This document shows, one piece after another, positions 11,030 through 59,943 of a DNA stretch of 59,943 nt. Within the stretch, counting starts at the first letter, position 1. Every line of letters starts with the position of its first letter. Origin of the DNA: an uncultured virus (IMG/VR IMGVR_UViG_3300012277_000001) (lineage: Duplodnaviria; Heunggongvirae; Uroviricota; Caudoviricetes); IMG/VR virus record IMGVR_UViG_3300012277_000001, positions 248,001 to 307,943 of that record; one strand, given 5' to 3'. The notes below the pieces were generated by a model. That model saw only the letters and a program-made list of their open reading frames with translations. It was not told where the DNA came from and did no database searches. Made by a program: the position numbers and the translations under genes.

Positions 11030-14000
11030 ATGGCTGCACTTGAGGCACTGAATGCAATCGTAGATAAGCATGGCTCCGAGCACGACGCAAAAGAGCCACC
11101 AAAGCGGCGCAGTATTCATGAGCAGACCCCGCGCCTCATGCAGCATGCGCACGTTCCACAAAATGATGGTGTGTCTTTTTCTGGCCAGAAAAAACATTCT
11201 TATGCACGTTCTGGCCAGCGCAATGAAAACCAGAAAACCAATCTGCCTGCCGTTCGTACCCAAGCACAGCAGCACGACCGCCAAGCGGAAGCAATCGACG
11301 GCCAAACGCAGGTAATTCGTGCACAGGCAGTTGGTCAACAAAAGCAATCGAACCTGATGCTGCAACAATCTGGTTTGATGCAGGATCAGTTGCACGCTAC
11401 GCAGGAAATGTCGGACGTAATCAATCGTCTGGCAGAATACATGCAAAAGCAAATGACCCGCCCCGAAGCCAAAGTGCAGCGGATGGGTAACACGTACGAA
11501 GGCGAATTCACGAAGATCAACGAAAAGCAGTTGGCGGCGCAAGAACGCCGTATGACTGTGCTCGACGAACTCCGTGAAAAGCGTCGTGAAATGCAGCGTA
11601 TTCGCGCATCGAAACAGGAACGTGATCGCCTCGGTCGATTCACGCGCAGCGCCCCCAAAGGCCCCAAACTGCAACGTGTCGGTGGGGGTGTGCGTGGAAT
11701 TGGCGGGATGCTCGAAGGCGGCATGATGGAAGGCATGGGCGGACGTGCTGCTGGTATGGCGGCGCGGGCTGCATGGCCCCTGCTTGCACTGGCTGCTGCC
11801 TACTACGGTTCCAAAGCAATGACTGCCGCTTCGGATAATTATACGTTCGAAAAGAAAGATTCGAACATGGTTACTCGCGGCTGGCAAAACACCAAGGATT
11901 GGGTGGGTGATAAATTCCGCGACGATCCGGGCGAATCTTTCCTCGACAAAGCCACGGTTAAATCGGGCGGTAAGCAGCAAGGCGAACTGATGGGCGAAAG
12001 TGCCCGTCATAAAGATTTTGGTTCGATCAGCGCTGCATTCGAATCAGGCAATAAAGGCGTGGGCACCGTGTCCACCGGCAAAGGTGACAAAGGCGGTGTT
12101 TCCTACGGTAAGCACCAGCTAAGTTCCAAAGCCGGGACCATGACCGCATTTTTGCGTTCGGAAGATGGCCAGAAATACTACAACGATTTCCGGGGTATGG
12201 CACCCGGCTCCGAAGAGTTCAACAAGAAATACAAAGAGGTTGCAGACCGCGACGGCGAAGGCTTTGACAAAGCGCAACAGGCGTTCACCACAAAGACCCA
12301 CTACAACCCGGTCGCTGCGTGGTTTGAAAAGCAATACGATATCAAACTGGATGAACGTTCCCGCGCTCTGAAAGAATGCGTTTATTCGGTTGCAGTTCAG
12401 TACGGTTTGAGCACCGCCAAGTCTGTTTTGGCTGATGCATTTGGTAATCGCGACATTACCAAAATGCCCGATGCCGAAATGATCGACCGCGTGCAGGAAA
12501 CTCGCGCCGCGACCGTGGGTACACGTTTCCGTTCCAGTAGCCAAGACGTGCAGGATAGCGTTTACAAACGCGCCGGTACTGAAAAAGCTGCGCTGCTGAA
12601 AATGTTGAACGAAGAACAAGGCGGCCCCGGTTCTGCCAAGGCTTCCGGTTCCGGCATCGGCTCGCAGTATTCGCAGCAAATGATTGGCGTTTACGGTGGT
12701 AAAACATCGGGCGCAAATCAGAGCGGGACCGCATCTAACGGCACGGTCGGTGTTATGGCCATGCCTCAAGGTGGTGGCGGTGGAATGTCTGGCGCTGGCG
12801 ACGAAGCCGGGGGCGGAACTGCTGCTGGAATGCTGTCGCCTGCAAATGGCGCGCTGTATGCGTTGGGTCAGAAACACGTACGCCCCAACGACAACTCGGT
12901 AAATATGTCTGGTTTGAATGATAAATTCAAGCAAGCATTTTTCACCATGGTTGGTGACTGGGTACAAAACAGCGGAGGCACCGTTGTAAACGTGGCATCT
13001 GCTTTCCGTACGCGTGCTGAACAGGAAAAGCTGTGGATTAAATACGGACGTAACACCAAACGCGTTGCACGTCCGGGCACCAGCCGCCACGAATCAGGTT
13101 TTGCAATCGACATTGACCGCAATTCTGCGAGTGCGATGGAAGGTGCGGGCCTGTTCAAGAAATACGGTTTCCATCGACCACTTTCCAACGAGCCGTGGCA
13201 CGTTGAAATGATTGGTGCAGGGAAAGGCGGTGCGGGTGGTGGCCCTCAAGTTGCGGCGGCCAATGCCAGCCCCCAACTGATGCAGCAGCAAGCATCGCAG
13301 GAAATGGACAAAGCCGCTGAGGCCACTGTAAACCGCGCCGAAGAAAACACGAAAGGTACGGAAAAAACATGGTCGCAAAAGCTTAACGAGAAAAAGCCTC
13401 CTACCGATTCTGAGACTGGCGGCACCTCCAAAGCAGCCGAAGCAAACGGCGCTAAAGCCAAGGCCGGACTTGAGGAAGAGGAAGAAGAGGAAGAGGTAGG
13501 CGAAAAGCCAGATGACATTGGTGAAAACGACACCAAAATAATCAACAAAGAGGTTATGCCTCCGACCGTTGATGTTATGGGCGGTGCACCGACTACGCGC
13601 ACACCTGAAGAGCAGGCGCTTTATGAGCAATACCTGAAACAGGCTGGCGGTGATCCTCGCGGTGTTCCTGAAACGATTTCGAACCCCGGTCAAAATCCGT
13701 TCGGCAGTCCAGAATTGCAACGCACGAATCCGGGGTCTGGAACGCCTACGTGGTCACAGCGTAATGCAGGGCGCGGGGCTAATGGTGTACCGGGTTCCAA
13801 TGGCGGCTATACGTCTGGTCAGTATGGGCAGCGTGCACGGCCATGGTCGCAAAGCCAAACCGGTCGGGCGATTACGGGCGCCGCAACGAAAATAGGCAAC
13901 GTTTATGGAATGGGTGGGTTCGGTACAATGGCCCCCGGTGTGTTCGGTGGGTTGCGGAAAGTTGACGGAAAAGTAAACGATGTTTTGAACAAGGTTCCGG

Positions 14001-25761: not shown

Positions 25762-26109
25762 ATGTCGCACAACCAAACCCCGTACGTCGGCGCCCTGACA
25801 GCTTTCTGCAACACCCCTGTGGCAATGACTGTTCACCACGTGGCGTACGCCGAAGACGGCACCATTGAAAATGTGACCTGCGTTTTCTTCACCAAAAACG
25901 GCAAGCTGGATTATGCCAGCGGCAAGCCTGAGTTCTACGTGGGCTTCGGTGAAAGCCTGATCTTCGAAGGCGGCGCATTCGTCGGTGCGTTCAACAACAT
26001 CGAGGACGAAGAAGAACTCGAAGAAGAGGAAGAAGAGGAAGAAGAACTCGAAGACGAAGACCCAGTAAATTCCCAGTACACCGAAGGCGACAACGCCTTG
26101 AACCAGTAA
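25762..26109 (+). CDS. Small protein with poly-acidic C-terminus
   Basis: SD GGAG; EDEEELEEEEEEEEELEDED tract. Confidence 0.7.
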   Translation: MSHNQTPYVGALTAFCNTPVAMTVHHVAYAEDGTIENVTCVFFTKNGKLDYASGKPEFYVGFGESLIFEGGAFVGAFNNIEDEEELEEEEEEEEELEDEDPVNSQYTEGDNALNQ

Positions 26110-33705: not shown

Positions 33706-34302
33706 CCACGCGAAATTACCGGGAACATTTCCGGTAAGTATGAGTCGGGCGGTCGCGGTGTCAAAACTGTGTCCACTGGCAAAGGCGACAAAGGCGGTGT
33801 GAGCTACGGCAAGCACCAGCTGGCATCGAACACCGGGACCATGGCGGATTTTTTAAAGTCGTCGTTTGGTCGTCCGTACGCTGTACGCTTCGGCGCCACG
33901 ATTCCGGGCACTAAAGAATTCACCGCGATCTACAACGCGATTGCGAGTGAAGCGCCTGAAGAATTTGAAATGGCGCAATTCATGTACATCGGCCAAACAC
34001 ACTACGACCCGCAGGCTGCAAAATTGGCTGCGAATTACATTTTCGTAGACGACCGCCATGTCGCGGTTCGCGAATGTGTGTTCAGCGTTTCTGTTCAGTA
34101 CGGCCCAAATACCAGCTTCATCATCAAGGCGCTGGGGCCGAACTTCAAAGGCACTGATCGGGAATTCATCGAGAAAGTGCAGGACTATCGCGCCTCTTCG
34201 GTTGGCGTGTATTTCAAATCCAGCAGCAAGGCGGTTCAAAAAAGCGTGGCTGATCGTGCAGCCGACGAGAAAAAAGATTTGCTAGCTTTGCTCAACACCT
34301 AA
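33697..34302 (+). CDS. Stand-alone VgrG3-C-like muramidase, candidate endolysin
   Basis: YESGG.G..TVSTGKGDKGGVSYGKHQL, THY.P and SVQYG motifs; paralog of the domain in 11030-14587. Confidence 0.8.
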   Translation: MSKPREITGNISGKYESGGRGVKTVSTGKGDKGGVSYGKHQLASNTGTMADFLKSSFGRPYAVRFGATIPGTKEFTAIYNAIASEAPEEFEMAQFMYIGQTHYDPQAAKLAANYIFVDDRHVAVRECVFSVSVQYGPNTSFIIKALGPNFKGTDREFIEKVQDYRASSVGVYFKSSSKAVQKSVADRAADEKKDLLALLNT

Positions 34303-35740: not shown

Positions 35741-35767
35741 AAGCCCCGGCCTACGCTGGGGCTTTTT
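35741..35767 (+). terminator. Intrinsic terminator
   Basis: aagccccggc/gctggggc plus T5. Confidence 0.85.
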
Positions 35768-35793: not shown

Positions 35794-36309
35794 ATGAAGC
35801 TCGATGGCCGCAAACTTCAAAAATGGCGCATGCGCCTCGGTATTAAGCAGCTGGATTTGGCGCAGTATTTATGCCTTGACCAACGCGATTTGAACAAGAT
35901 AGAAAATCGTATGCCGGTGCCCCGTGCGTGGGAAGTGCGCGAACATATTCAAACGGCCCTGACCTATTTTCAGGATACGCCACTTTATGACCTGCATGTG
36001 GATTCGGCGCGCATGGCGAAGAACACCGAGGGCTTTTTGGCCACGCTCCAAGTGACCACTAAACACGACACGACAGCCGATTTCTACGTGGACAAGCGCG
36101 AACAGGCTCGGGCGTTTGTGCGCATTGTGGATGCGTTGCGTTTTGAGAAAGGCGGTTTGCCTCATGAATCGTTGCTGCTGATCAAATTCAACGAAGGTCG
36201 GCACCTGCGCATCATTGCTAACCCGCTGCGCGTTATGCAGCACGTCGAAAAGTTTTACGTGCAGGGTCGCCAAATCGTGAGCGTCGAAAGGCAAATTGAA
36301 GCTGCATGA
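35794..36309 (+). CDS. XRE-family HTH protein
   Basis: L..WR..LGI.Q..LA..L......L..IEN motif. Confidence 0.8.
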   Translation: MKLDGRKLQKWRMRLGIKQLDLAQYLCLDQRDLNKIENRMPVPRAWEVREHIQTALTYFQDTPLYDLHVDSARMAKNTEGFLATLQVTTKHDTTADFYVDKREQARAFVRIVDALRFEKGGLPHESLLLIKFNEGRHLRIIANPLRVMQHVEKFYVQGRQIVSVERQIEAA

Positions 36310-36800
36310 ATTTGTTCGTAACAGGTCCGTCGCCTACCTTGAGTGCACGCGCCCACTGTGACGTGCACCTTATTAAGATGACGACGGAAGCGGCACAGCT
36401 GCTATCGACCACGCAATTTGTTTTGACGGGTGAAGTGGTCGGCTACAAACCCACGCATCGAAATCACCCGTGTGCAATTTGGATCAGGGAATCAGCGGCT
36501 AACTATCGCTGGGCCTACCTGTTCTATTGCTGCCTGCTGACTGAATACGAATACCGATTCGGCAAGCAGCATAAAGCGGGCGCCTTCCGGCAAGCGTTCG
36601 GACGTGTGCCGCCGTTACCCGAAAACGGGCTGACCCCATTTGCGCAAGTGGTGGCCCCGGTGTTTCAGCAATGCAACACCTTCGCCGCGTACCGCCAGCA
36701 CATCCGGGCAAAGCTTCTAGAGTGGCCCCAACGCACACGCCCAGTGCGCACCACGTTCACCCGGCGCCAACGCCCGGCCTTCCTTTCCGACCTTCCCTAG
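36306..36800 (+). CDS. Pyrimidine-dimer DNA glycosylase (T4 endonuclease V-like family)
   Basis: MNLF..., D.H..KM..E.AQLLST, YKPTH.NHPC..W.RES and EY.YRFGK.H motifs. Confidence 0.85.
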   Translation: MNLFVTGPSPTLSARAHCDVHLIKMTTEAAQLLSTTQFVLTGEVVGYKPTHRNHPCAIWIRESAANYRWAYLFYCCLLTEYEYRFGKQHKAGAFRQAFGRVPPLPENGLTPFAQVVAPVFQQCNTFAAYRQHIRAKLLEWPQRTRPVRTTFTRRQRPAFLSDLP

Positions 36801-36819
36801 CCCGCCCTGTGCGGGCTTT
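36799..36819 (+). terminator. Hairpin/terminator, CMYGT-loop family
   Basis: agcccgc-cctgt-gcgggct-tt. Confidence 0.6.
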
Positions 36820-49402: not shown

Positions 49403-49678
49403 ATGTTCCTAATGCATAACATCATCAAATCGCTTTTCCCCCAAGACCACGAAGTCAAATTGGTCGGCAAGTTTTCCAACGCCTGTGCCTACACCGTGGA
49501 AACCAAATTGGGCGACATTGAAATGCTTGTCGCGACCTTCACCGTGGATGCTGGCGACGAATTCGCCCTGACTACGTTGAACGGCGAAGCGTGCCAGAAA
49601 GGAACAGGCTTTGCGCAATTCAAGAAGGCGCTGAAATCGCAAGACCTGCTGTGCAAATTCGAAACCATCGAGGAATAA
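49403..49678 (+). CDS. Hypothetical protein
   Basis: SD AGGAG. Confidence 0.75.
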   Translation: MFLMHNIIKSLFPQDHEVKLVGKFSNACAYTVETKLGDIEMLVATFTVDAGDEFALTTLNGEACQKGTGFAQFKKALKSQDLLCKFETIEE

Positions 49679-50686: not shown

Positions 50687-50890
50687 ATGGCTGTAGGTTG
50701 GGCACGCGAAGGCGACACTGAAAAAGAAACCGAGAACGCGATAGCGATGGAAATTTACCGGGCGCGTAAATCGCTGGCAGGGCCACCCCGTACCGAGTGC
50801 ATCGACTGCGACGAACCAATAGGCGAAGCGCGGCTGCGTGTTCACCCAACGGCCCAGCGCTGCATACGTTGCCAAGCCGCTAGGGAGTGA
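50687..50890 (+). CDS. DksA/TraR-family C4 zinc finger (YbiI-like)
   Basis: MA.GWA N-terminus; C.DC.EPI.EAR....P....C..CQ motif. Confidence 0.9.
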   Translation: MAVGWAREGDTEKETENAIAMEIYRARKSLAGPPRTECIDCDEPIGEARLRVHPTAQRCIRCQAARE

Positions 50891-51935: not shown

Positions 51936-52285
51936 TCGAACTATTGGACAACCCCGAATCTGTAAATGAGTTGGTGGACGACCAGCGTGTAATGGTCGGC
52001 GGTGTTGAATGTATTTTCAGCTGCGACAACAAACGCGTGCCGCAATCCACCTATGTTTATCTGACCACCGCAAGTTCCCGAGTTACTGCCTACCACGAAG
52101 AGTTAGAAAGACTCGAAAAGAAAATGCGCGACGAAGGGCAGGACGAATTCGTTATCAGCATGGCCGGTCACTGCATCTACGGAGATTACATTTATAATTT
52201 CCGCCAGACTGAAAACGGGGCGGCTATGATGAACCGCGAACAGATGATCGACATTCTTAAAAGCGGCCAGTACGTTCTGGCGTAA
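51932..52285 (+). CDS. Hypothetical protein
   Basis: ATGA overlap, SD GAGG. Confidence 0.7.
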   Translation: MIELLDNPESVNELVDDQRVMVGGVECIFSCDNKRVPQSTYVYLTTASSRVTAYHEELERLEKKMRDEGQDEFVISMAGHCIYGDYIYNFRQTENGAAMMNREQMIDILKSGQYVLA

Positions 52286-52294
52286 GGAGACACA

Positions 52295-52984
52295 ATGAAT
52301 ATTCCAACTTGGGCCACCGTAATTCTTTTGGCGTGCGCGCTGTTTGTTCTGTGGCGACACGTATTGCCAAAATTGCCCTACGCAGTTGCGGCCTTCGTCG
52401 GGTTTATGCTCCACCAGCAGGCAGCCAAGGCAATCGGCGTACATCGCGGGCCTATTTGGGCACACGCCCCGCATTTCATTTTGCGAGCGTATAAAACGCG
52501 CATGCAGTACCAAACAACCCTGCGCTATCCAGACCTCGATTACAATTACGCGAAGGGCATCGTCAACAACATTACCAAGGGCGAGCGTTGGTTAGATTCG
52601 ATGGCGCATTACCTTTCCATGGGCCGACACAACGCCACGGTTACGGTGATCAAGAATGGCCCCGATCTGAAAGTTAATGAAACGCTGGAATACGTGGTAG
52701 GTGTTTTGCCCGGTAACGAAGATTACGCACCGATGCGTGCGTTGATCTTGCACCCAATGTCGGACGCCGTTGAATCCATTATCGGCTTCGATCTGGCCAA
52801 ACTTCAAAAAGCTGTAAAACACTATATGCCTGACGTTGAGGCCATCATGGTTTACGAACCGCGCTCGCTGGTTGACGGCAAGTGGAACACCATCGCTTAC
52901 CTGTCGGCATTCGAAGGCAGTATGTGCGGCGAGTGGTACGACGTAGACCACCTGATGTTTAAAATCCCCAAGGACGAAAAATGA
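52295..52984 (+). CDS. Membrane-anchored hypothetical protein
   Basis: SD AAGGAG; N-terminal TM segment. Confidence 0.75.
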   Translation: MNIPTWATVILLACALFVLWRHVLPKLPYAVAAFVGFMLHQQAAKAIGVHRGPIWAHAPHFILRAYKTRMQYQTTLRYPDLDYNYAKGIVNNITKGERWLDSMAHYLSMGRHNATVTVIKNGPDLKVNETLEYVVGVLPGNEDYAPMRALILHPMSDAVESIIGFDLAKLQKAVKHYMPDVEAIMVYEPRSLVDGKWNTIAYLSAFEGSMCGEWYDVDHLMFKIPKDEK

Positions 52985-53346
52985 AGCGCTATCATATTTA
53001 TCTGCGTGGCACCAAACACATCGGTTCAGTTACGGCCCAACTCATGGCGCAATGCATCCGCGACTATGACCGGTTTGATTATCCGTGGATGGCAAACTTG
53101 CTTCGTGACCTGTGCGCAGATGCAAAAGAGCGGGCAAAGCCGGACTGTCCGCCAGTGCGCCCACTGGTTGTCAACGAAGTGCAGGCTTCCGCGTGGGCCA
53201 TCGCAGTTAACGCCACCAAAGCAACCCGCAAGGCGTTGGAATGCACGCTCGCTACGCAGCGCCACGGCATGTTCATTGGTTGGAGCGAAACACCCCTGCC
53301 CGATCCCGACACCGTGCGCTGTGCGCACTGCCAGCGCCCCTACTGA
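52981..53346 (+). CDS. Hypothetical protein with C-terminal CxxC
   Basis: ATGA overlap, SD AAGGA. Confidence 0.7.
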   Translation: MKRYHIYLRGTKHIGSVTAQLMAQCIRDYDRFDYPWMANLLRDLCADAKERAKPDCPPVRPLVVNEVQASAWAIAVNATKATRKALECTLATQRHGMFIGWSETPLPDPDTVRCAHCQRPY

Positions 53347-53360
53347 GGCTTACAGGTCGA

Positions 53361-53389
53361 TTGACCGTCTGTCGGCCTTTGGGTACAAT
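53361..53389 (+). promoter_or_regulatory. Sigma70 promoter, copy 6
   Basis: TTGACC-17-TACAAT. Confidence 0.8.
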
Positions 53390-53394
53390 GAAAC

Positions 53395-53462
53395 CTCTTC
53401 GCCCAACTGTGGGCCGAGAACATACAGTCACACGATAAGGGAAGTTTAGGACTTCCCTTTTT
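53395..53462 (+). ncRNA. Candidate ~70-nt small RNA or attenuated leader carrying the TCAC-N7-GGGAAGTTT motif
   Basis: 5' hairpin gccca/tgggc; motif 53425-53447; aagggaagt pairs with acttccctt (53451-53459), then T-run; no ATG at the usual offset. Confidence 0.55.
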
Positions 53463-53489
53463 CATATTGGACCCAACGAGGAAATAACC

Positions 53490-53954
53490 ATGAACTTCAA
53501 ACAATCGCTGATCACCATCCTGCAATTCAACCGCGTTACCTCCGAAGAGGTGGGCGACATTTCTGTGGCACTCGCTTCGGGGTTGATCACCGAAACCGAG
53601 TTTCTGAAAAAATTGATCGACCTTGCGAATCGCAGTAACTCGGTTCCCAAGGAAGCGCTGGAAAAGATGGCGCAGGAATCTTTCCCGTATAGCGTGGCCA
53701 CCGGCAGCTATGATGACGATGGTGAAAACTGCAAATACTGCGATGACTTCGCCAGCATGCGCGATGCGATTACCGCGTGGGAAGAGTATTCGCCGGGTGC
53801 TGCATGGGCACGCATCGAGTTCACGTGCGACGGATTCACCTACGGCCTCGATCCCTACAAGATCCGCAAAGCCAAGCGGGTGAAAATGGACGATGGCGAA
53901 ACGCGCACCATGTACATGCGCTGCAACGAGCGCGGCGAATTCATCGACCAGTGA
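53490..53954 (+). CDS. Hypothetical protein
   Basis: Own SD GAGGA downstream of the terminator-like hairpin. Confidence 0.75.
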   Translation: MNFKQSLITILQFNRVTSEEVGDISVALASGLITETEFLKKLIDLANRSNSVPKEALEKMAQESFPYSVATGSYDDDGENCKYCDDFASMRDAITAWEEYSPGAAWARIEFTCDGFTYGLDPYKIRKAKRVKMDDGETRTMYMRCNERGEFIDQ

Positions 53955-53956
53955 TA

Positions 53957-53992
53957 ATTCTCAAGGGCATCTAGATCGGTGCCCTTCGGAAT
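53957..53992 (+). promoter_or_regulatory. GCAU-Y-N6-R-GUGC hairpin, copy 4
   Basis: attc-tc-aagggcatc-tagatc-ggtgccctt-cg-gaat. Confidence 0.75.
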
Positions 53993-54020
53993 GACCACAA
54001 ACAGAAATAGAGGAAAGCAG

Positions 54021-54590
54021 ATGGAAAATATCAAATACCACGTTGTTAAAGCATCGCGTTCTTATAGCGGTGTGGGTTACAGCGGGCCTGCCTTGAAGCG
54101 CACCACATTCTCCGAAATGGAAAGTGCATCGTTCGACAATCTGACCACCGCCATTCACTGTGCGACGCAACTGAACGAAGAAAATCCGGTAGGCTTCGAG
54201 ATTTACCATCGGGGCCAATTGGTGTGGCCTGAAAAGGGCGTGCGGAAACAGGCGGGCAACAACCCAGCGGTTCCCGATGAACACGCGCTGCGTCTCGCAG
54301 GCTATGTTCTGGCGTCGGCCAAATGCCACGAAGACAACTACGACAAAGAGGCGGCCAGCGAGGCCGAAAAAGAAGCGGGGGCCGAATACGACAATGCGAA
54401 AGCATCGGGCGACCCCTATTACTACATGCACGTTGTAGACTTCGCCAAGTTCTACAAACTGACGTTGCGCCAAGCTGTAGAAGCCACGGCGCCCGCTGCA
54501 TTTGTGGAGCCGGTTTACCTGCTGCTGCAACTAAGCTGGAACGACGCCCTCGACTGGGCCAAGCGCATCACGGAAGGCCAGCCGAGCTAA
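54021..54590 (+). CDS. Hypothetical protein
   Basis: SD GAGGA. Confidence 0.75.
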   Translation: MENIKYHVVKASRSYSGVGYSGPALKRTTFSEMESASFDNLTTAIHCATQLNEENPVGFEIYHRGQLVWPEKGVRKQAGNNPAVPDEHALRLAGYVLASAKCHEDNYDKEAASEAEKEAGAEYDNAKASGDPYYYMHVVDFAKFYKLTLRQAVEATAPAAFVEPVYLLLQLSWNDALDWAKRITEGQPS

Positions 54591-54657
54591 GGAGAGACGA
54601 TGCACCTGCAATTCGTATTTATTCAGTGGCGATCACCTAAGCCACTGAGAACGCAAA

Positions 54658-54978
54658 ATGTCGCGCACTATCCGACGCCATAACCTGTGCCCATACAACA
54701 CCGGAGACGTTTACCACGTAGACGATTCCCGCTGGCGTGATGTGTGGCCCGGTTTGGATTATCAGCAGTATCAGAAATTGGCGCTGGCACATTTCCACCG
54801 TGACAACGCCGACATTTTTGGCACTGAGTATTCGATCCCTCGGCTGTACGGCCACCTTTGCCAAGAACGCCCACAACGGCGCCAGATTCGCGCACAGCTT
54901 TATCGTGCGTGGCGCTATGATGAATGGGACGACCTGAGCGTCAAACGTTGGCCCAAGGATTGGACGATTTACTACTGA
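54658..54978 (+). CDS. Hypothetical Arg-rich protein (MSRTIRR N-terminus)
   Basis: Open frame; N-terminus typical of phage hypotheticals. Confidence 0.7.
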   Translation: MSRTIRRHNLCPYNTGDVYHVDDSRWRDVWPGLDYQQYQKLALAHFHRDNADIFGTEYSIPRLYGHLCQERPQRRQIRAQLYRAWRYDEWDDLSVKRWPKDWTIYY

Positions 54979-54981
54979 CGA

Positions 54982-55018
54982 TCCAGTGAAGGGCATTCAC
55001 CCGAGTGCCCTTTGCGGA
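54982..55018 (+). promoter_or_regulatory. GCAU-Y-N6-R-GUGC hairpin, copy 5
   Basis: tcc-a-gtgaagggcattc-accc-gagtgccctttgc-gga. Confidence 0.75.
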
Positions 55019-55031
55019 AACATCAGGGTAC

Positions 55032-55445
55032 ATGAAAATGGAAAATGATCTGCAACTGACGACGCAGCATTTAGATCCAGATAAGCGCGCCTATTCGCTG
55101 CACAAAAATGGGCAGGCTGTTGCTTATTTGGAAGTTGACGCCTATTCGAAATTCTTGGCACTCGAAGACGTTGTGACCTACGACGCACATCGCCGCAAAG
55201 GCTACATGCGGCAGATGATTACCGAGGTAGTCAAACGCGAAGGGGCTGAAGTGGTTCGCTTGCTGGTCTATCCAGACAATAAGCCTGCGATCAAACTTTA
55301 TCGGTCGCTAGGTTTTCGGTTTGCCAAAGACGGCGTTTATCGTAAGTCATTGGGCGCCCGATGTGCTGATCCGGAAGACGCAAAGATTTTGGAAAAGCTG
55401 CCTGAAATGGTTTGGGCCGCGTCGAGGAAATTGGAGGAAGTATGA
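55032..55445 (+). CDS. GNAT acetyltransferase
   Basis: V.T...HRRKGYMR motif A; L.V..DN.PAIKLYRSLGF motif B. Confidence 0.9.
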   Translation: MKMENDLQLTTQHLDPDKRAYSLHKNGQAVAYLEVDAYSKFLALEDVVTYDAHRRKGYMRQMITEVVKREGAEVVRLLVYPDNKPAIKLYRSLGFRFAKDGVYRKSLGARCADPEDAKILEKLPEMVWAASRKLEEV

Positions 55446-56395
55446 ACCGCAAGGATCTGGAAAAACTGTTCGACCGTTACGATGTTTACTACGACGAAGT
55501 TGGGTTGGACGTACGCGATGTTCGCACAGGCAGGCATATCGGTTCGGTGCACTACATCAGCGGCACCACCGGTTCCGAAGTGCTGGCAGTCTGCAATAGC
55601 GAATTGAGTACACTGCGCCAACCCAAGCTGATTTCGATTGGCGGCGAATGCAGTTTCCGCAACGTTCACGAATTGGCCAACTCGCTAAACAGCGACCGCC
55701 GTCTGGAAGGCAAACGGCCTGCAAGCGAGCGCATGCTTAATCGAGAATTCAAAGCGTGCGCCAAATTCGATTTCGAATCGTGCGTGAAGCTGTTAAAGGC
55801 GTGGTTGGACTTCCTGTTCTTCGCAGACGGCAATAACGAACTGCCCGAAGACGTTACCGACCGCCTGAACAAAGCGGGCAAACGCCACTATGGCAAAGTG
55901 CGCAAGGCACGTACCAGCGTTGTAGCCGAGGCGCCTAAACCCTATACCGGCCCCCATGGCTGGAACGATGCCATACGCGCCCTGCACGGCCCAAAGGAGA
56001 GCGATTCGGACGAACCCGATGCTACCCTAGCGCCTACCGAGAAAAACGCGCCTCTGATCCTCGGAACGCTCAAGGCGTTGGATGCCAACGCCACGCACGA
56101 AGGCAGGCATCAAGCGGTGTATGAACACGTGCTGAAGAACGGCCCGGTGTGTCGCCGGGAGTTGGTCGAAAGCGTAAGCATTTCGCGGGTAAACGTTACA
56201 CGGATCATCCGCCGTCTGGAAAATTGCGGGCTGTTGATCGAAAAGCCCTGCGGGATCGGCAAACACTTTGTGGCGTTGGCATCGTGTGGCATCGACGTAA
56301 CTCGCGTGGCAGCCGCGTACGCAGTGCTGGTAATGCAACGCACGTACGAAGAAATGGCTGACAAATATAAATCTGCATACGGGACCATGCCATAA
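55442..56395 (+). CDS. Protein with C-terminal winged-HTH (MarR/ROK-type)
   Basis: VYEHVLKNGPVCRRELVE...ISR..VTRII.RLE..GLL. Confidence 0.75.
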   Translation: MNRKDLEKLFDRYDVYYDEVGLDVRDVRTGRHIGSVHYISGTTGSEVLAVCNSELSTLRQPKLISIGGECSFRNVHELANSLNSDRRLEGKRPASERMLNREFKACAKFDFESCVKLLKAWLDFLFFADGNNELPEDVTDRLNKAGKRHYGKVRKARTSVVAEAPKPYTGPHGWNDAIRALHGPKESDSDEPDATLAPTEKNAPLILGTLKALDANATHEGRHQAVYEHVLKNGPVCRRELVESVSISRVNVTRIIRRLENCGLLIEKPCGIGKHFVALASCGIDVTRVAAAYAVLVMQRTYEEMADKYKSAYGTMP

Positions 56396-56856
56396 TGCAC
56401 AGCATCACGTTCATAAAAACCAACACCACCAACGCAGTTTCCATCAAGTTGGCTCGCATGCTGGGTTACGAACCTTACCCGGATGGCGAATGGCGTTACA
56501 AAAGCGACACGAAAATTGGTTGCATGTACCGCCCGATCAAACCCGCGCCGGGCATCGAATTCGATAATCGCTGCCCAACCGATTTCGATCCGTTCCGTGA
56601 TGGCGTGGATACGATGGCAGTTCAATCGCTGCTGAATATCGAAACCAAGTTTCAGACAATTGGCGGCGACCGCTACGTGGCTGCAACCAACGGCGAATTT
56701 TCGGTGCGGGTGAACGTGCCCAAAAGCGAACACCATCGCGGGGCCGCTGGCGCACTTCAGGCCGCGACCATGGCCGTGGCAATGCTGTACCTTGAGCACC
56801 ATTTCGGCATTGTTTACGTGCCTGATGAAATTGTGCAGGTGGGGGCCGATGAATAA
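56395..56856 (+). CDS. Hypothetical protein
   Basis: TAATG coupling. Confidence 0.7.
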   Translation: MHSITFIKTNTTNAVSIKLARMLGYEPYPDGEWRYKSDTKIGCMYRPIKPAPGIEFDNRCPTDFDPFRDGVDTMAVQSLLNIETKFQTIGGDRYVAATNGEFSVRVNVPKSEHHRGAAGALQAATMAVAMLYLEHHFGIVYVPDEIVQVGADE

Positions 56857-57211
56857 GCCAATTGATAAGATGCGCCAACACCTTATCGCAACGGTCAACG
56901 TTTACATCGGCCACGAAAAAGACAGAACTGTAAATGTACTCTACTGGCCCGGCTACGGCGTTGTCATGCCTTCAGCCGTAACCACGAACGGCAATGTTTG
57001 GTGCGCCGCTGAGTACATACACGGGCAACAAAACAACAAACGCCAGCTGGAAAAGATGGAGCCGGGAACGCCGGTCAAGGTCGTGTGTACCGTGCTGGAT
57101 GGCGAAGCTTTCGTGGAACTGGACTACACCAGACCTGTAGAAGAGATTCGCGAAAAACTTCTTAAAGCTGCCAAGCAATTCGATGGGGTTTCAGAAAATG
57201 CAGTTGATTGA
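56849..57211 (+). CDS. Hypothetical protein
   Basis: Overlapping start, SD GGTGG. Confidence 0.7.
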   Translation: MNKPIDKMRQHLIATVNVYIGHEKDRTVNVLYWPGYGVVMPSAVTTNGNVWCAAEYIHGQQNNKRQLEKMEPGTPVKVVCTVLDGEAFVELDYTRPVEEIREKLLKAAKQFDGVSENAVD

Positions 57212-57533
57212 CCCGCGTAACCAAGTAGTTTCCGGCTGGACTGTTGACCAGTTCTTGCTGGTGCAGAAATTCATGCCTACGCACCTGTACACCAGCCGCG
57301 ACGTTTTCGGTTTGGACGTTGGGCAAGTTTTGGAATTGTCGCTGAGCGAGTTGGAAATCCAGCTTGGCCGTGCACACGAAAACATCATGTGCGGCCTGCA
57401 ATCTGCCGTACACTTCGATCAAATTGCCCAGCTGCATCGAGCCGGTTTGCTGATTGCATTGCTGCAAGATCGTTTGGCGCGTATGCAGTTGTCGGGGGAT
57501 ACGCCGATCCGCTGCCTGATTGCTGATAGCTGA
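57198..57533 (+). CDS. Hypothetical protein
   Basis: Overlapping start. Confidence 0.65.
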   Translation: MQLIDPRNQVVSGWTVDQFLLVQKFMPTHLYTSRDVFGLDVGQVLELSLSELEIQLGRAHENIMCGLQSAVHFDQIAQLHRAGLLIALLQDRLARMQLSGDTPIRCLIADS

Positions 57534-57557
57534 CAGAAAATTTGGGAGCATGCTTTA

Positions 57558-58265
57558 ATGACTGATCAGAAAATCATCGTCGATCTTTCGTGTGGGGGTT
57601 ATACCGACCCCGACACCAAGGAAGTGAAAAGCTGGTTGAGTTCCAATATCGGCCACATGTACGACCATGAAAAAGAACTGTTGGCCAAAGCACCGGGTTT
57701 CGTCGGTTATCCGCACGGCAATTTCTACGGTTCTGCTTTCATCGAAGGTACGGCAGCGGAACTGGAAGCATTTTTCGCGGAATTCGTCAAAGAATATGAC
57801 GACGAACATACGGCCCGCGAAGTGCCGATGATCATGGAGCGTGTGCGTCGGGGCGACCGCCTGATTCGCTGCTACCACATTGTATGGCCCGGTCGCTACC
57901 CCGAAGAGCGTGTAGACAGTCAGACGTTCGCCAGAATGCACCAAGTGCTGGCACACGAAGAATGTCGCAGCTGGAGCCACCTCGGTTCCATGCGTGACCA
58001 CATGCGACAATACGCATTGTGGGAAGTTGTAAACGTCGGCTTGTATGACACGTGGTTCAGCATCGAATACCGCAACGGACACAAGCCAAATTTCTCGTAC
58101 TACGAAATCGGGTTCGAGTTCAACACTGACGAAACAGCGCCGGAAAAACCGAAACCTGCTGGTGAAGATTTTGTGCAGTTCATGAAATGCGTGGAAGCAG
58201 TGGCCGGACGCTACAACGAAAAGCTCGCATGGTTTGAGCAGCACATGCGCCAAGAACCGCGTTAA
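57558..58265 (+). CDS. Hypothetical protein
   Basis: SD GGGAG. Confidence 0.75.
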   Translation: MTDQKIIVDLSCGGYTDPDTKEVKSWLSSNIGHMYDHEKELLAKAPGFVGYPHGNFYGSAFIEGTAAELEAFFAEFVKEYDDEHTAREVPMIMERVRRGDRLIRCYHIVWPGRYPEERVDSQTFARMHQVLAHEECRSWSHLGSMRDHMRQYALWEVVNVGLYDTWFSIEYRNGHKPNFSYYEIGFEFNTDETAPEKPKPAGEDFVQFMKCVEAVAGRYNEKLAWFEQHMRQEPR

Positions 58266-58282
58266 AGGTGGAGTAATATTCT

Positions 58283-58744
58283 GTGAATTTCACATCGGGG
58301 TTTTCGCTGGACTACGATAAGGAAGTGGAAAAGTGCGACCAGCTTCGCAAGTGGGGCCACGTCCGCGATATACGCAATACCAAGCTGAACCCCGATGCGA
58401 AATCGCCTGACGGCATTGTTTACTTTGGCCAACGCATCGTTTCCAAAAAGGGCACTGTTCGTTTTGCCGGTGAAATTTGGCAAACTGAATTCTTGCTGCC
58501 CTTTGCTGGGTTTCAGGTTGGTTTGTGCGTATGGGATTACTGGATTACGAAAATCCAAGTGTACCGACCGGACTACCCAAGCGGTACTTACATGTTCACC
58601 CTGCACAGTGAACGCGAAGGCGACAAAGAACGGCATGAAGAATACCTGCTGCGTCAAGAACGCATTCAGGAAATGGACGAACGAAACGGCGGGGCCTATT
58701 TCAGGATGCCCGGCCTTAAATTGGTTAAGGGTAGGGCAGAATGA
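58283..58744 (+). CDS. Protein with Mu-transposase C-terminal-like beta domain
   Basis: RIVSKKGTVRFAGEIW....L..FAG.QV....WDY.....IQVY; GTG start, SD GGAG. Confidence 0.55.
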   Translation: MNFTSGFSLDYDKEVEKCDQLRKWGHVRDIRNTKLNPDAKSPDGIVYFGQRIVSKKGTVRFAGEIWQTEFLLPFAGFQVGLCVWDYWITKIQVYRPDYPSGTYMFTLHSEREGDKERHEEYLLRQERIQEMDERNGGAYFRMPGLKLVKGRAE

Positions 58745-59252
58745 AACGACCTCGTTTTGAAGATATGCGCCAAGGCGTTACCGTCTACACCGTATGGGTT
58801 TTGATCCGCTGTGCTGCGATGTGTTCGGCAACATCTGGAAATCTACCATCGAAAAGCATTTTGTGACCGGTAAACCCTACATGTACACCGATATCGGTTG
58901 GCGTGTTCCAACCGAACGTGTGACCAGCTGGGGCACCACGAACGACGAAGGGTTTTTCTTGGGCACCTACGACGTGCCCAATACACCAGAGGCCATGGGC
59001 AACCGAACGGCGCATCGCTGCTTCTGGACCTACAAGGCGGCCAAGCGCTACTCCGAACGCATGCGTAGCGGCTGCCTCACTGCGAAGGAATGGCAGCATG
59101 CCAAAAGCTGGGCCGAGTTCCGCGACGATCTGCACAGCATGTCGGCCTACATTGACGATTACGATTACGGGTGTGACGACAGCTACGCGGAACGCGTGGA
59201 CTTTGACGACCTAGAGGAAGAAATGGAAAATGACGAACATAGTCGGATTTAA
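58741..59252 (+). pseudogene. Hypothetical gene split by an apparent 1-nt frameshift near 58795-58802
   Basis: ATGA-coupled start 58741 stops at 58866; the body continues in the -1 frame (58794-59252), whose ATG lacks an SD. Confidence 0.5.
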
Positions 59253-59652
59253 AGAACGCACTTTGCGTGGCCCGATGGAAAATAATCGGGTTATGCCCGA
59301 TCAGGTCAAACCGGGCTGCACTATCTTTCGCGTGACAGCCCCCGGCCACCGCCCACCGCGTGTAGAAGAACTGCTGGTTAAAACCGCGCCACGCCCCCAC
59401 GGTACGAACGGCGCAATGGCGTTCAAGGCCCAGCAGGTCATAGATGGGAAACCGCGCCGGTTTGAATCGTTCTGCACGTTGCAGGATTTCGGAATTATCA
59501 TCAACGATTACAACATGTCGATGACGTTTCACGACCGTGCAAATGCCGAGGCCTACCGCGACCGTCTCATACGCCAAGACCTGACGGCGTTCGAGCATAA
59601 ACGCCTGACGAAAGTCCGGATACACAACCTTCACAAATTTCTCAATGGGTGA
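59230..59652 (+). CDS. Hypothetical protein
   Basis: Overlapping start; good codon usage. Confidence 0.7.
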   Translation: MTNIVGFKERTLRGPMENNRVMPDQVKPGCTIFRVTAPGHRPPRVEELLVKTAPRPHGTNGAMAFKAQQVIDGKPRRFESFCTLQDFGIIINDYNMSMTFHDRANAEAYRDRLIRQDLTAFEHKRLTKVRIHNLHKFLNG

Positions 59653-59658
59653 CAAATC

Positions 59659-59943
59659 ATGCGCTTTGAAATCGGACAGAATGTTTGGGTAATGTGGGCC
59701 GACCATCAAGACGGCTGGTTGTATCCTTTCTACACAACGCTGCAAAACTTCGACAAAGTTGAAAAGTGGCCAGAATTGCAGTTCCGCAAAATGAACATCA
59801 CCGAGCACCATCGAGTGCGCGGCGAGTGGGACAACAACGACGCTACGCCCGCCTATGACGGCTTTGTGGCCGTCGATGAAAAAGGCAGCGTGTGGCACAA
59901 TCAATATCCGATCTGCCATACGGGCAGCCAGACCAGTGATGGC
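59659..59943 (+). CDS. Hypothetical protein (3'-truncated by window)
   Basis: ATG 59659, open to the end: MRFEIGQNVWVMWADHQDGW... Confidence 0.7.
   Translation, partial: MRFEIGQNVWVMWADHQDGWLYPFYTTLQNFDKVEKWPELQFRKMNITEHHRVRGEWDNNDATPAYDGFVAVDEKGSVWHNQYPICHTGSQTSDG

Follow-up and report, generated by a model that had tools for sequence, protein, structure and literature searches.

A candidate terminator built from the ribosome-binding box of a repeated early leader in a Lu11/HRDY3-like jumbo phage

At the locus studied here, a sixth copy of a repeated promoter-leader cassette lies between the last gene of an upstream operon and a set of + strand genes extending as far as the genome end. The stretch of DNA analysed (the window, 59,943 nucleotides) corresponds to bases 248001-307943, at the right end of a virus record of 307,943 bp, and thus to the last 60 kb of a 308-kb genome. 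The nearest named relatives of this virus are Pseudomonas phage HRDY3 (313,683 bp), which shows 72.6% identity across 79% of window positions 52000-56000, and, more distantly, Pseudomonas phage Lu11. The locus contains the following features, all on the + strand:

52981-53346, + strand, last ORF (121 aa) of the upstream operon, which begins at the fifth promoter-leader (ATG 48519)
53361-53366, + strand, -35 hexamer TTGACC of a promoter with 10 of 12 consensus matches and a 17-nt spacer, conserved in five orthologous lineages
53384-53389, + strand, -10 hexamer TACAAT, sigma70-type, with a predicted transcription start at about 53395-53397
53396-53419, + strand, 5'-proximal leader hairpin (UCUU.GCCCA / UGGGC.GAGA, loop ACUG), dG -11.4 kcal/mol, z -3.06
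53425-53431, + strand, CAGTCAC box (consensus CACTCAC) of the leader motif, separated by N7 from GGGAAGTTT
53439-53447, + strand, GGGAAGTTT box, the ribosome-binding site (RBS) in 29 of 34 leader copies, here with no start codon after it
53437-53459, + strand, hairpin 2, a perfect 9-bp inverted repeat with 5' arm AAGGGAAGT (53437-53445), loop (53446-53450) and 3' arm ACTTCCCTT (53451-53459)
53458-53462, + strand, T-run (U-tract directly 3' of the stem), followed by CATATT, the T-rich tail TTTCATATTG extending to 53469
53478-53483, + strand, second, canonical Shine-Dalgarno (SD) sequence GAGGAA, serving the ATG at 53490, with 31 nt from the stem end to this ATG
53490-53954, + strand, first downstream ORF (154 aa), which starts the gene set running to the genome end and has orthologues in the related lineages G001 and G006 and in Lu11

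These parts include everything that the original prediction had described, namely the -35 and -10 hexamers, the hairpin, the CAGTCAC-N7-GGGAAGTTT motif, the complementary arm and the T-run, all of them at the positions where it had placed them. It had also proposed that this copy has the best -10 of the set and that no ATG follows the motif, the next gene having its own SD. Both points hold: TACAAT is the best -10 among the six copies, the other five having a TGn extended -10 that the sixth lacks; there is no ATG or GTG in 53448-53489, hence no leader peptide there, and the first start codon is that at 53490, with its SD GAGGAA. Transcription of this copy would start near 53395-53397. We also considered the CATATT after the hairpin as a -10 for the gene at 53490 and rejected it, as it is conserved neither in HRDY3 nor in G001. 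The 154-aa ORF itself matched no family in Pfam or PHROGs and yielded no Atlas lead.

The leader motif is a real family. With up to 3 mismatches, its pattern has 7 matches in the window versus 0.60 expected, a number reached in none of 100 shuffles; six of the seven are promoter-leader cassettes, the other one (at 49452, 3 mismatches) having neither promoter nor leader context. In the whole genome there are 12 instances with up to 2 mismatches, and matches with 3 mismatches are at chance level. We assembled 34 distinct leader sequences from the genome and related contigs, in which TTGAC lies 45-75 nt upstream of the motif. Their invariant core is CTCAC...GGAAGTT, and in 29 of them a start codon follows GGAAGTT by 2-7 nt (one of these 29 opens just a 13-codon ORF), so that the box is the ribosome-binding site in those copies. 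The five leaders that lack one are all orthologous to the sixth copy, and all of them pair GGGAA with TTCCC. GGGAAGT is not the general SD of this phage: on the + strand of the window it occurs 11 times, five of them in leaders, and one other occurrence precedes a start codon. Folded individually, the stretches from the -10 to the core form a hairpin in most copies, with negative z-scores in 27 of 28 (-2 or lower in 11 of 28). RNAalifold did not recover the 5' hairpin from the MAFFT alignment, and in a covariance-model search of 29 sources, which aligned 35 matches, the pairs amounted to 60.8% versus 60.0% in shuffles (score 0.133 versus 0.130), an absence of excess that we attribute to the almost ungapped alignment produced despite shifts in stem register. 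Generic scans detected no enrichment of promoters (11 sites versus 11.6 in shuffles) or terminators (30 sites versus 28.5) as classes, so the evidence rests on the specific architecture of the elements and on their conservation.

Several other members of the family, elsewhere in the genome, have unusual settings. At position 151112 (- strand, locus L011), a leader copy CACTTAC-N7-GGGAAGTTT opens a 4-codon ORF only; the SD of the real gene lies about 40 nt further on, and there is no masking hairpin. A second orphan promoter-leader (169520-169220, - strand, L012:1246-1616) has the promoter TTGACC-17-TACCGT, the leader and the motif, and then only a 13-codon ORF followed by two terminator-like hairpins, one of which pairs GGGAAGCC with GGCTTTCCC before TTTGG; after these, a further, weaker promoter and another leader lie ahead of the real gene. 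A 451-nt stretch of this locus is 93.6% identical to HRDY3, versus 72.6% around the sixth copy. We regard 169520-169220 as a candidate non-coding RNA locus, and short early RNAs may be a recurring feature of this phage. Finally, an inverted form of the motif, CA(G/C)TCAC-N7-(C/G)GGAAGTT, occurs at genome 115103-115124 (- strand, L010) as well as at G001:268229-268256 and G005:114987-115014. It abuts the -35 of a + strand sigma70-like promoter, just past a bidirectional-looking terminator, and the leader of that promoter has no full motif. This placement at a -35 is not explained by an RNA-level role.

The hairpin that distinguishes the sixth copy exceeds chance. The probability of finding ACTTCCC within 3-9 nt after one of the 12 motif copies of the genome is about 0.005, and perfect 9-bp hairpins with a T-run number seven in the genome versus 0, 0, 0, 0, 3, 0, 0, 0, 0 and 0 in 10 Markov resamples. 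Hairpin 2 (53437-53459) has nine Watson-Crick pairs plus a U.G pair and a dG of -12.1 kcal/mol. G-C pairs make up 4 of 10, the stem being AT-richer than the other terminators of the phage, but it presents a stem-loop with G-C pairs and with a dG in the range of the phage's compact terminators, followed directly 3' by a U-tract. In the nascent RNA its pair probability is 0.93-1.0 in all five lineages that have the hairpin. We detected no mutually exclusive antiterminator fold in the ensemble of any of these five lineages, nor a second complement of either arm within the leader.

The surrounding early region gives this hairpin a context. Compact + strand terminators with an AAG-stem-CTT-T shape are found at 35763, 36817, 38086, 42563, 45861, 48324 and 53458, the last being the sixth-copy hairpin and the others having dG values from -12.6 to -20.1; a further compact terminator lies at about 40006 (+ strand). 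A leader promoter follows the terminator at 36817 and 48324 only, whereas behind those at 35763, 38086, 40006, 42563 and 45861, which are GC-rich, an SD and a start codon come within about 25-60 nt, with no sigma70-like promoter. Terminator-SD-ATG is thus a standard predicted junction in this phage, and since so many terminators have an SD and ATG but no promoter behind them, read-through must be frequent; genes behind intra-operonic terminators would have to depend either on it or on promoters of a class that escaped recognition. The stretch from the fifth promoter (48427) to 53437, which holds about 15 closely spaced + strand ORFs, has no compact terminator, which makes the sixth-copy hairpin also the first stop signal for the upstream operon. 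Downstream of it, we found neither a compact terminator nor a convincing promoter up to the end of the record.

Among 38 upstream and 14 downstream ORFs, the sole Pfam matches were GNAT, a weak winged HTH, Phage_g100-like (twice), DksA/TraR zinc finger, Pyr_excise, KTSC and a weak KorA-like match; the ORFs past 53490 are mostly of no known family and include the GNAT acetyltransferase (55005-55445, + strand), the weak winged-helix match and the two Phage_g100-like proteins, which are adjacent (58794-59652, + strand) with a 23-nt overlap. In the fifth early operon, a 67-aa ORF (50687-50890, + strand) carries a DksA/TraR C4 zinc finger (PF01258, E 1.4e-10) and possibly modulates the host RNA polymerase, and an ORF at 36306-36800 (+ strand) resembles pyrimidine-dimer DNA glycosylases (PF03013). 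Concerning the transcription machinery, the genome has one ORF with sigma70 region 2, at 155.4 kb; a search for single-subunit, T7-type RNA polymerases (PF00940) had no match in the genome, its control being silent everywhere as well. The window contains repeats of other kinds too: runs of GAA/GAG/GAC codons (acidic low-complexity) in three ORFs (686-826, 13460-13531 and 25993-26085) dominate the direct-repeat families D1 and D2, and an 89-nt direct repeat with 80% identity (12065-12153 and 33766-33854, 21.7 kb apart) suggests paralogous gene segments.

Comparison with relatives shows what has been kept at this locus. A first scan of the sequence collection returned 62 loci, the leader being carried only by the window's own copy and HRDY3; a second returned 81 loci (2 relevant), a third at least 119 stretches (4 relevant among the 80 loci listed), a fourth 95 stretches, of which a filter kept 8 and 2 were relevant (L345, which is G001, and L428), and a fifth 6 loci, 3 of them relevant and all previously identified in the same analysis. 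A protein-seeded scan of the collection had no result. For Lu11, the promoter annotation was taken from the GenBank features. The sixth-copy promoter is conserved in five lineages, with 22-26 of 29 bases identical and GAAA(C/T)C after the -10, and what follows it takes four forms:

State A (L253, L266): a terminator hairpin adjoins the -35, and only 3-4 nt separate the leader RBS from the ATG of the orthologue
State B (window, HRDY3 and G001, which equals G006 at this locus): no upstream terminator; AGGGAAGT pairs with (A/G)CTTCCCT, followed by T4-5, GGACCCAACGAGGA and ATG
State C (L428, L276): the arms still pair, over 7 bp in L428 and over 5 bp in L276, and the tail is CAAACGG (L428) or GCCACGG (L276), with no U-tract
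State D (Lu11): the leader RBS opens the 51-codon ORF Lu11_0373, which is separated from the orthologue Lu11_0372 by a canonical GC-rich terminator and then a new SD

Lu11_0373 has no homologue in the genome of the window's phage (best E 0.046). Sequence upstream of the equivalent gene is conserved in HRDY3, G001/G006, L428 and L276, and the complementary arm noticed in the original prediction recurs in HRDY3, G001/G006 and L428 and, shortened, in L276. Conservation is uneven along the leader. Against HRDY3, 53439-53459 is identical at 21 of 21 positions and 53470-53489 at 20 of 20, but the 5' hairpin at only 12 of 24 and the N7 spacer at 4 of 7; against G001, 53470-53489 is identical at 17 of 20 positions. 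The segment CTTCCCTTTTC is kept also in G001/G006, where the downstream protein is just 56% identical. In the 5' hairpin, two adjacent stem pairs are flipped between the window and G001 (C:G to G:C), and the loop of hairpin 2 differs among lineages. All five insertion-bearing lineages have the hairpin, with GGGAA-to-TTCCC spacings of 9, 9, 9, 10 and 6 nt, and all five have a second SD, GAGGA, 34-43 nt downstream, whereas the T-run is present in three of the five (window, HRDY3 and G001/G006). Termination is therefore not the universally conserved output and, since two lineages keep the stem and not the U-tract, the feature apparently under the broadest selection is the sequestration of the orphan RBS box. 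L428 and the G001 locus L129 are nearly identical in the flanking coding sequence and differ widely in the leader, that of L428 being partly like that of L276, which suggests recombinational exchange of leader cassettes between phages that circulate together.

We propose, with a probability of about 0.5, that the element is an intrinsic (Rho-independent) terminator placed in the 5' leader of the sixth early promoter, which would end the upstream operon, truncate most transcripts from its own promoter and throttle the downstream genes; from the sequence we infer promoter activity, termination, the short RNA and the downstream dependence on read-through. Host RNA polymerase with sigma70 would start near 53396 and transcribe in order the 5'-proximal hairpin, CAGUCAC and GGGAAGUUU. 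Because this copy has no start codon, its RBS-like GGGAAGU would pair with the inserted arm ACUUCCC, and the U-run would release most transcripts at a length of about 65-70 nt. Polymerases coming from the upstream 15-ORF operon would meet this hairpin as their first terminator, and it would mark the end of that operon. As the genes from 53490 on have their own SD but no recognisable promoter, they would be expressed only by read-through polymerases, and the element would throttle, and possibly delay, the 6.4-kb gene set 53490-59943. Two further observations favour a terminator. The hairpin has the same shape as the other compact + strand terminators of the phage, its 31-nt distance from stem to ATG fitting the promoterless junction type, and the arrangement in relatives is reciprocal, those without the hairpin (L253, L266) having a terminator directly upstream of the promoter and Lu11 having its canonical one after the 51-codon ORF. 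Against it stands the absence of the T-run in two of the five hairpin lineages, the universally kept feature being the GGGAA:TTCCC pairing; the low G-C content of the stem and the lack of enrichment in the generic terminator scan also count against it. The original prediction that a leader copy had been turned into a terminator holds as regards the RBS-like motif locked in a terminator-shaped hairpin and falls short in the two lineages where the T-run is missing. If termination were efficient, 6.4 kb of genes would be silent for want of another recognisable promoter, and so this terminator must be leaky or overridden; we prefer constitutive leakage to read-through controlled by a factor.

A second explanation, which we find unlikely but worth serious consideration, is a hairpin selected for masking the RBS. 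The stem would hide the orphan GGGAAGU, either stopping unproductive ribosome binding or letting the operon escape a control acting on early mRNAs, translation would proceed from the ordinary SD, and termination would be a lineage-specific extra. The pairing retained by 5/5 lineages against 3/5 for the T-run, the second SD common to all five, and the case of L428, which is near G001 in flanking coding sequence and yet has loop and tail replaced and the arms kept, are all as expected from it. It leaves unexplained, however, the conservation of the T-run and CTTCCCTTTTC between the window and the distant G001, as well as the retention of the motif instead of its simple loss, and no known nuclease or repressor acts on this motif. 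Masking is in any case compatible with termination in the window's own clade. As for the original claim that the motif acts as RNA, it fits the GGGAAGU box, whose pairing arms are kept while the loop varies and the pair probability is close to 1, but not the inverted whole motif that abuts a -35 elsewhere in two lineages.

Gated antitermination, one of the mechanisms originally put forward, appears improbable. In that model, or in a processive variant of it, a phage or host factor on the leader would let polymerase pass, making 53490-59943 a delayed-early unit. The order promoter-terminator-gene recurs in three clades (window/HRDY3, G001/G006 and Lu11), the same leader is common to all early units, and the many intra-operonic terminators without a promoter downstream would make a general antitermination mechanism possible. 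Lacking an alternative antiterminator fold, the leader would nevertheless need an additional factor. A search of the genome confined to the Q-type antiterminator family PF03589, whose control gave a match in E. coli, found no such gene, and Rfam had no match at E<=1 across 33000-59943; moreover, two lineages lack the T-run, and the fixed 2-7 nt spacing between motif and start in 29/34 copies points to translation. An equally doubtful version would have the shared leader (5' hairpin, CACUCAC and GGGAAGUUU) as the recognition site of a phage or host factor whose binding on the sixth copy competes with the GGGAAGU:ACUUCCC stem, so that the factor working at early RBSs would also open the delayed-early operon, with the abundant ~67-nt RNA buffering the factor; if this were true, a single motif family would serve as RBS, sensor and decoy.

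A functional role of the ~67-nt product itself, as the decoy of the original prediction or as a sponge for a leader-binding protein or a host RNA chaperone, seems to us slightly harder still to credit. The strongest -10 of the family drives an RNA without an ORF, the promoter is conserved in all orthologues, the second orphan leader at 169.5-169.2 kb is accompanied by about 150 nt of structured non-coding sequence 93.6% identical to HRDY3, and abundant RNAs derived from 5'UTRs are reported for phiKZ (PMC10914365). In the product, however, GGGAAGU is base-paired, leaving only the 5' hairpin and CAGUCAC exposed, and the two lineages without the terminator would make no discrete RNA. Sponges of CsrA/RsmA present GGA in hairpin loops; here a loop GGA is found solely in the window and HRDY3 and not in G001, L428 or L276, and we found no phage CsrA gene in the genome.

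Recognition at the DNA level is very improbable for this copy. The perfect 9-bp inverted repeat GGGAAGT-N5-ACTTCCC could bind a dimeric repressor acting as a roadblock at about +45 to +65, and the inverted whole motif that abuts the -35 at genome 115.1 kb in two lineages hints at recognition of DNA; nevertheless, the variable spacing between GGGAA and TTCCC (6 to 10 nt) is incompatible with the fixed helical register of a dimer and fits an RNA hairpin. Least probable of all is the trans-acting antisense RNA originally suggested, in which ACUUCCCU would pair with the AGGGAAGU RBS of other leaders, because, although nine canonical leaders of the genome have an RBS box exactly complementary to it, ACUUCCC is closed by pairing in cis (probability ~1, dG -12.1 kcal/mol), with just a 3-5 nt, unconserved loop exposed and hence no accessible conserved seed.

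The locus offers a compact entry to the transcription of Lu11/HRDY3-like jumbo phages, since its strong host-type promoter is predicted to yield no immediate product other than a short leader RNA. Our literature search found no paper on the transcription of Lu11-like phages, no published transcription map of a Lu11/HRDY3-like phage and no paper with both motif boxes in a phage context. The natural variants sample four informative genotypes: the hairpin with its U-tract or lacking it, an upstream terminator in place of the hairpin, and a small ORF with a canonical terminator. Together with the promoterless terminator-SD-ATG junctions, the locus suggests terminator read-through as a main way of grading or timing early expression in this phage, and if the hairpin proved to be controlled by a factor, the function of the conserved early leader would be identified too.

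Several known systems resemble parts of this arrangement. In phage lambda, the strong promoter PR' and the terminator tR' yield a short terminated RNA (6S RNA) unless Q makes polymerase terminator-resistant. The sixth copy likewise combines a strong promoter, a predicted short RNA and genes placed behind a terminator but, unlike in lambda, the genome gave no PF03589 match and there is no sign of a pause or loading site, and the genes are of early instead of late type. Some expression platforms of riboswitches and attenuators carry a Shine-Dalgarno sequence inside the terminator stem, much as here an SD-like sequence makes up one side of the leader's terminator hairpin; in contrast with them, the leader has no aptamer, leader peptide or competing antiterminator fold, and the masked SD is not that of the downstream gene. 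Phage T4 RegB and RegA control early mRNAs at Shine-Dalgarno regions. The leader family, as distinct from the hairpin, is comparable to their targets in that early messages of one class have a distinctive RBS context in common and may constitute a shared post-transcriptional target, although the motif is different. The leader element also resembles 5'-terminal stabiliser hairpins.

The closest parallels come from Pseudomonas phages, in which 42 terminators have been located inside 5'UTRs (Putzeys et al. 2024, PMC10914365). In phiKZ, more than 90% of the transcripts of the P112-T102 pair are stopped at T102, which gives a ~71-nt RNA that a Northern blot confirmed (PMC10914365). As in those cases, the sixth copy has a promoter, a terminator at once after it and genes that need read-through, with a predicted RNA of less than 250 nt, and like the 5'UTR ncRNA candidates of the same study its sequence is retained ahead of the corresponding gene in relatives (PMC10914365). 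The element differs from P112-T102 in that the 5' arm of its terminator is an RBS box belonging to a repeated family of early leaders, a box with which the paralogues start translation, and in being predicted from sequence. By its predicted architecture, the sixth-copy element thus belongs among the premature terminators of phage 5'UTRs, with the twist that its stem is built from the RBS box of the leader family.
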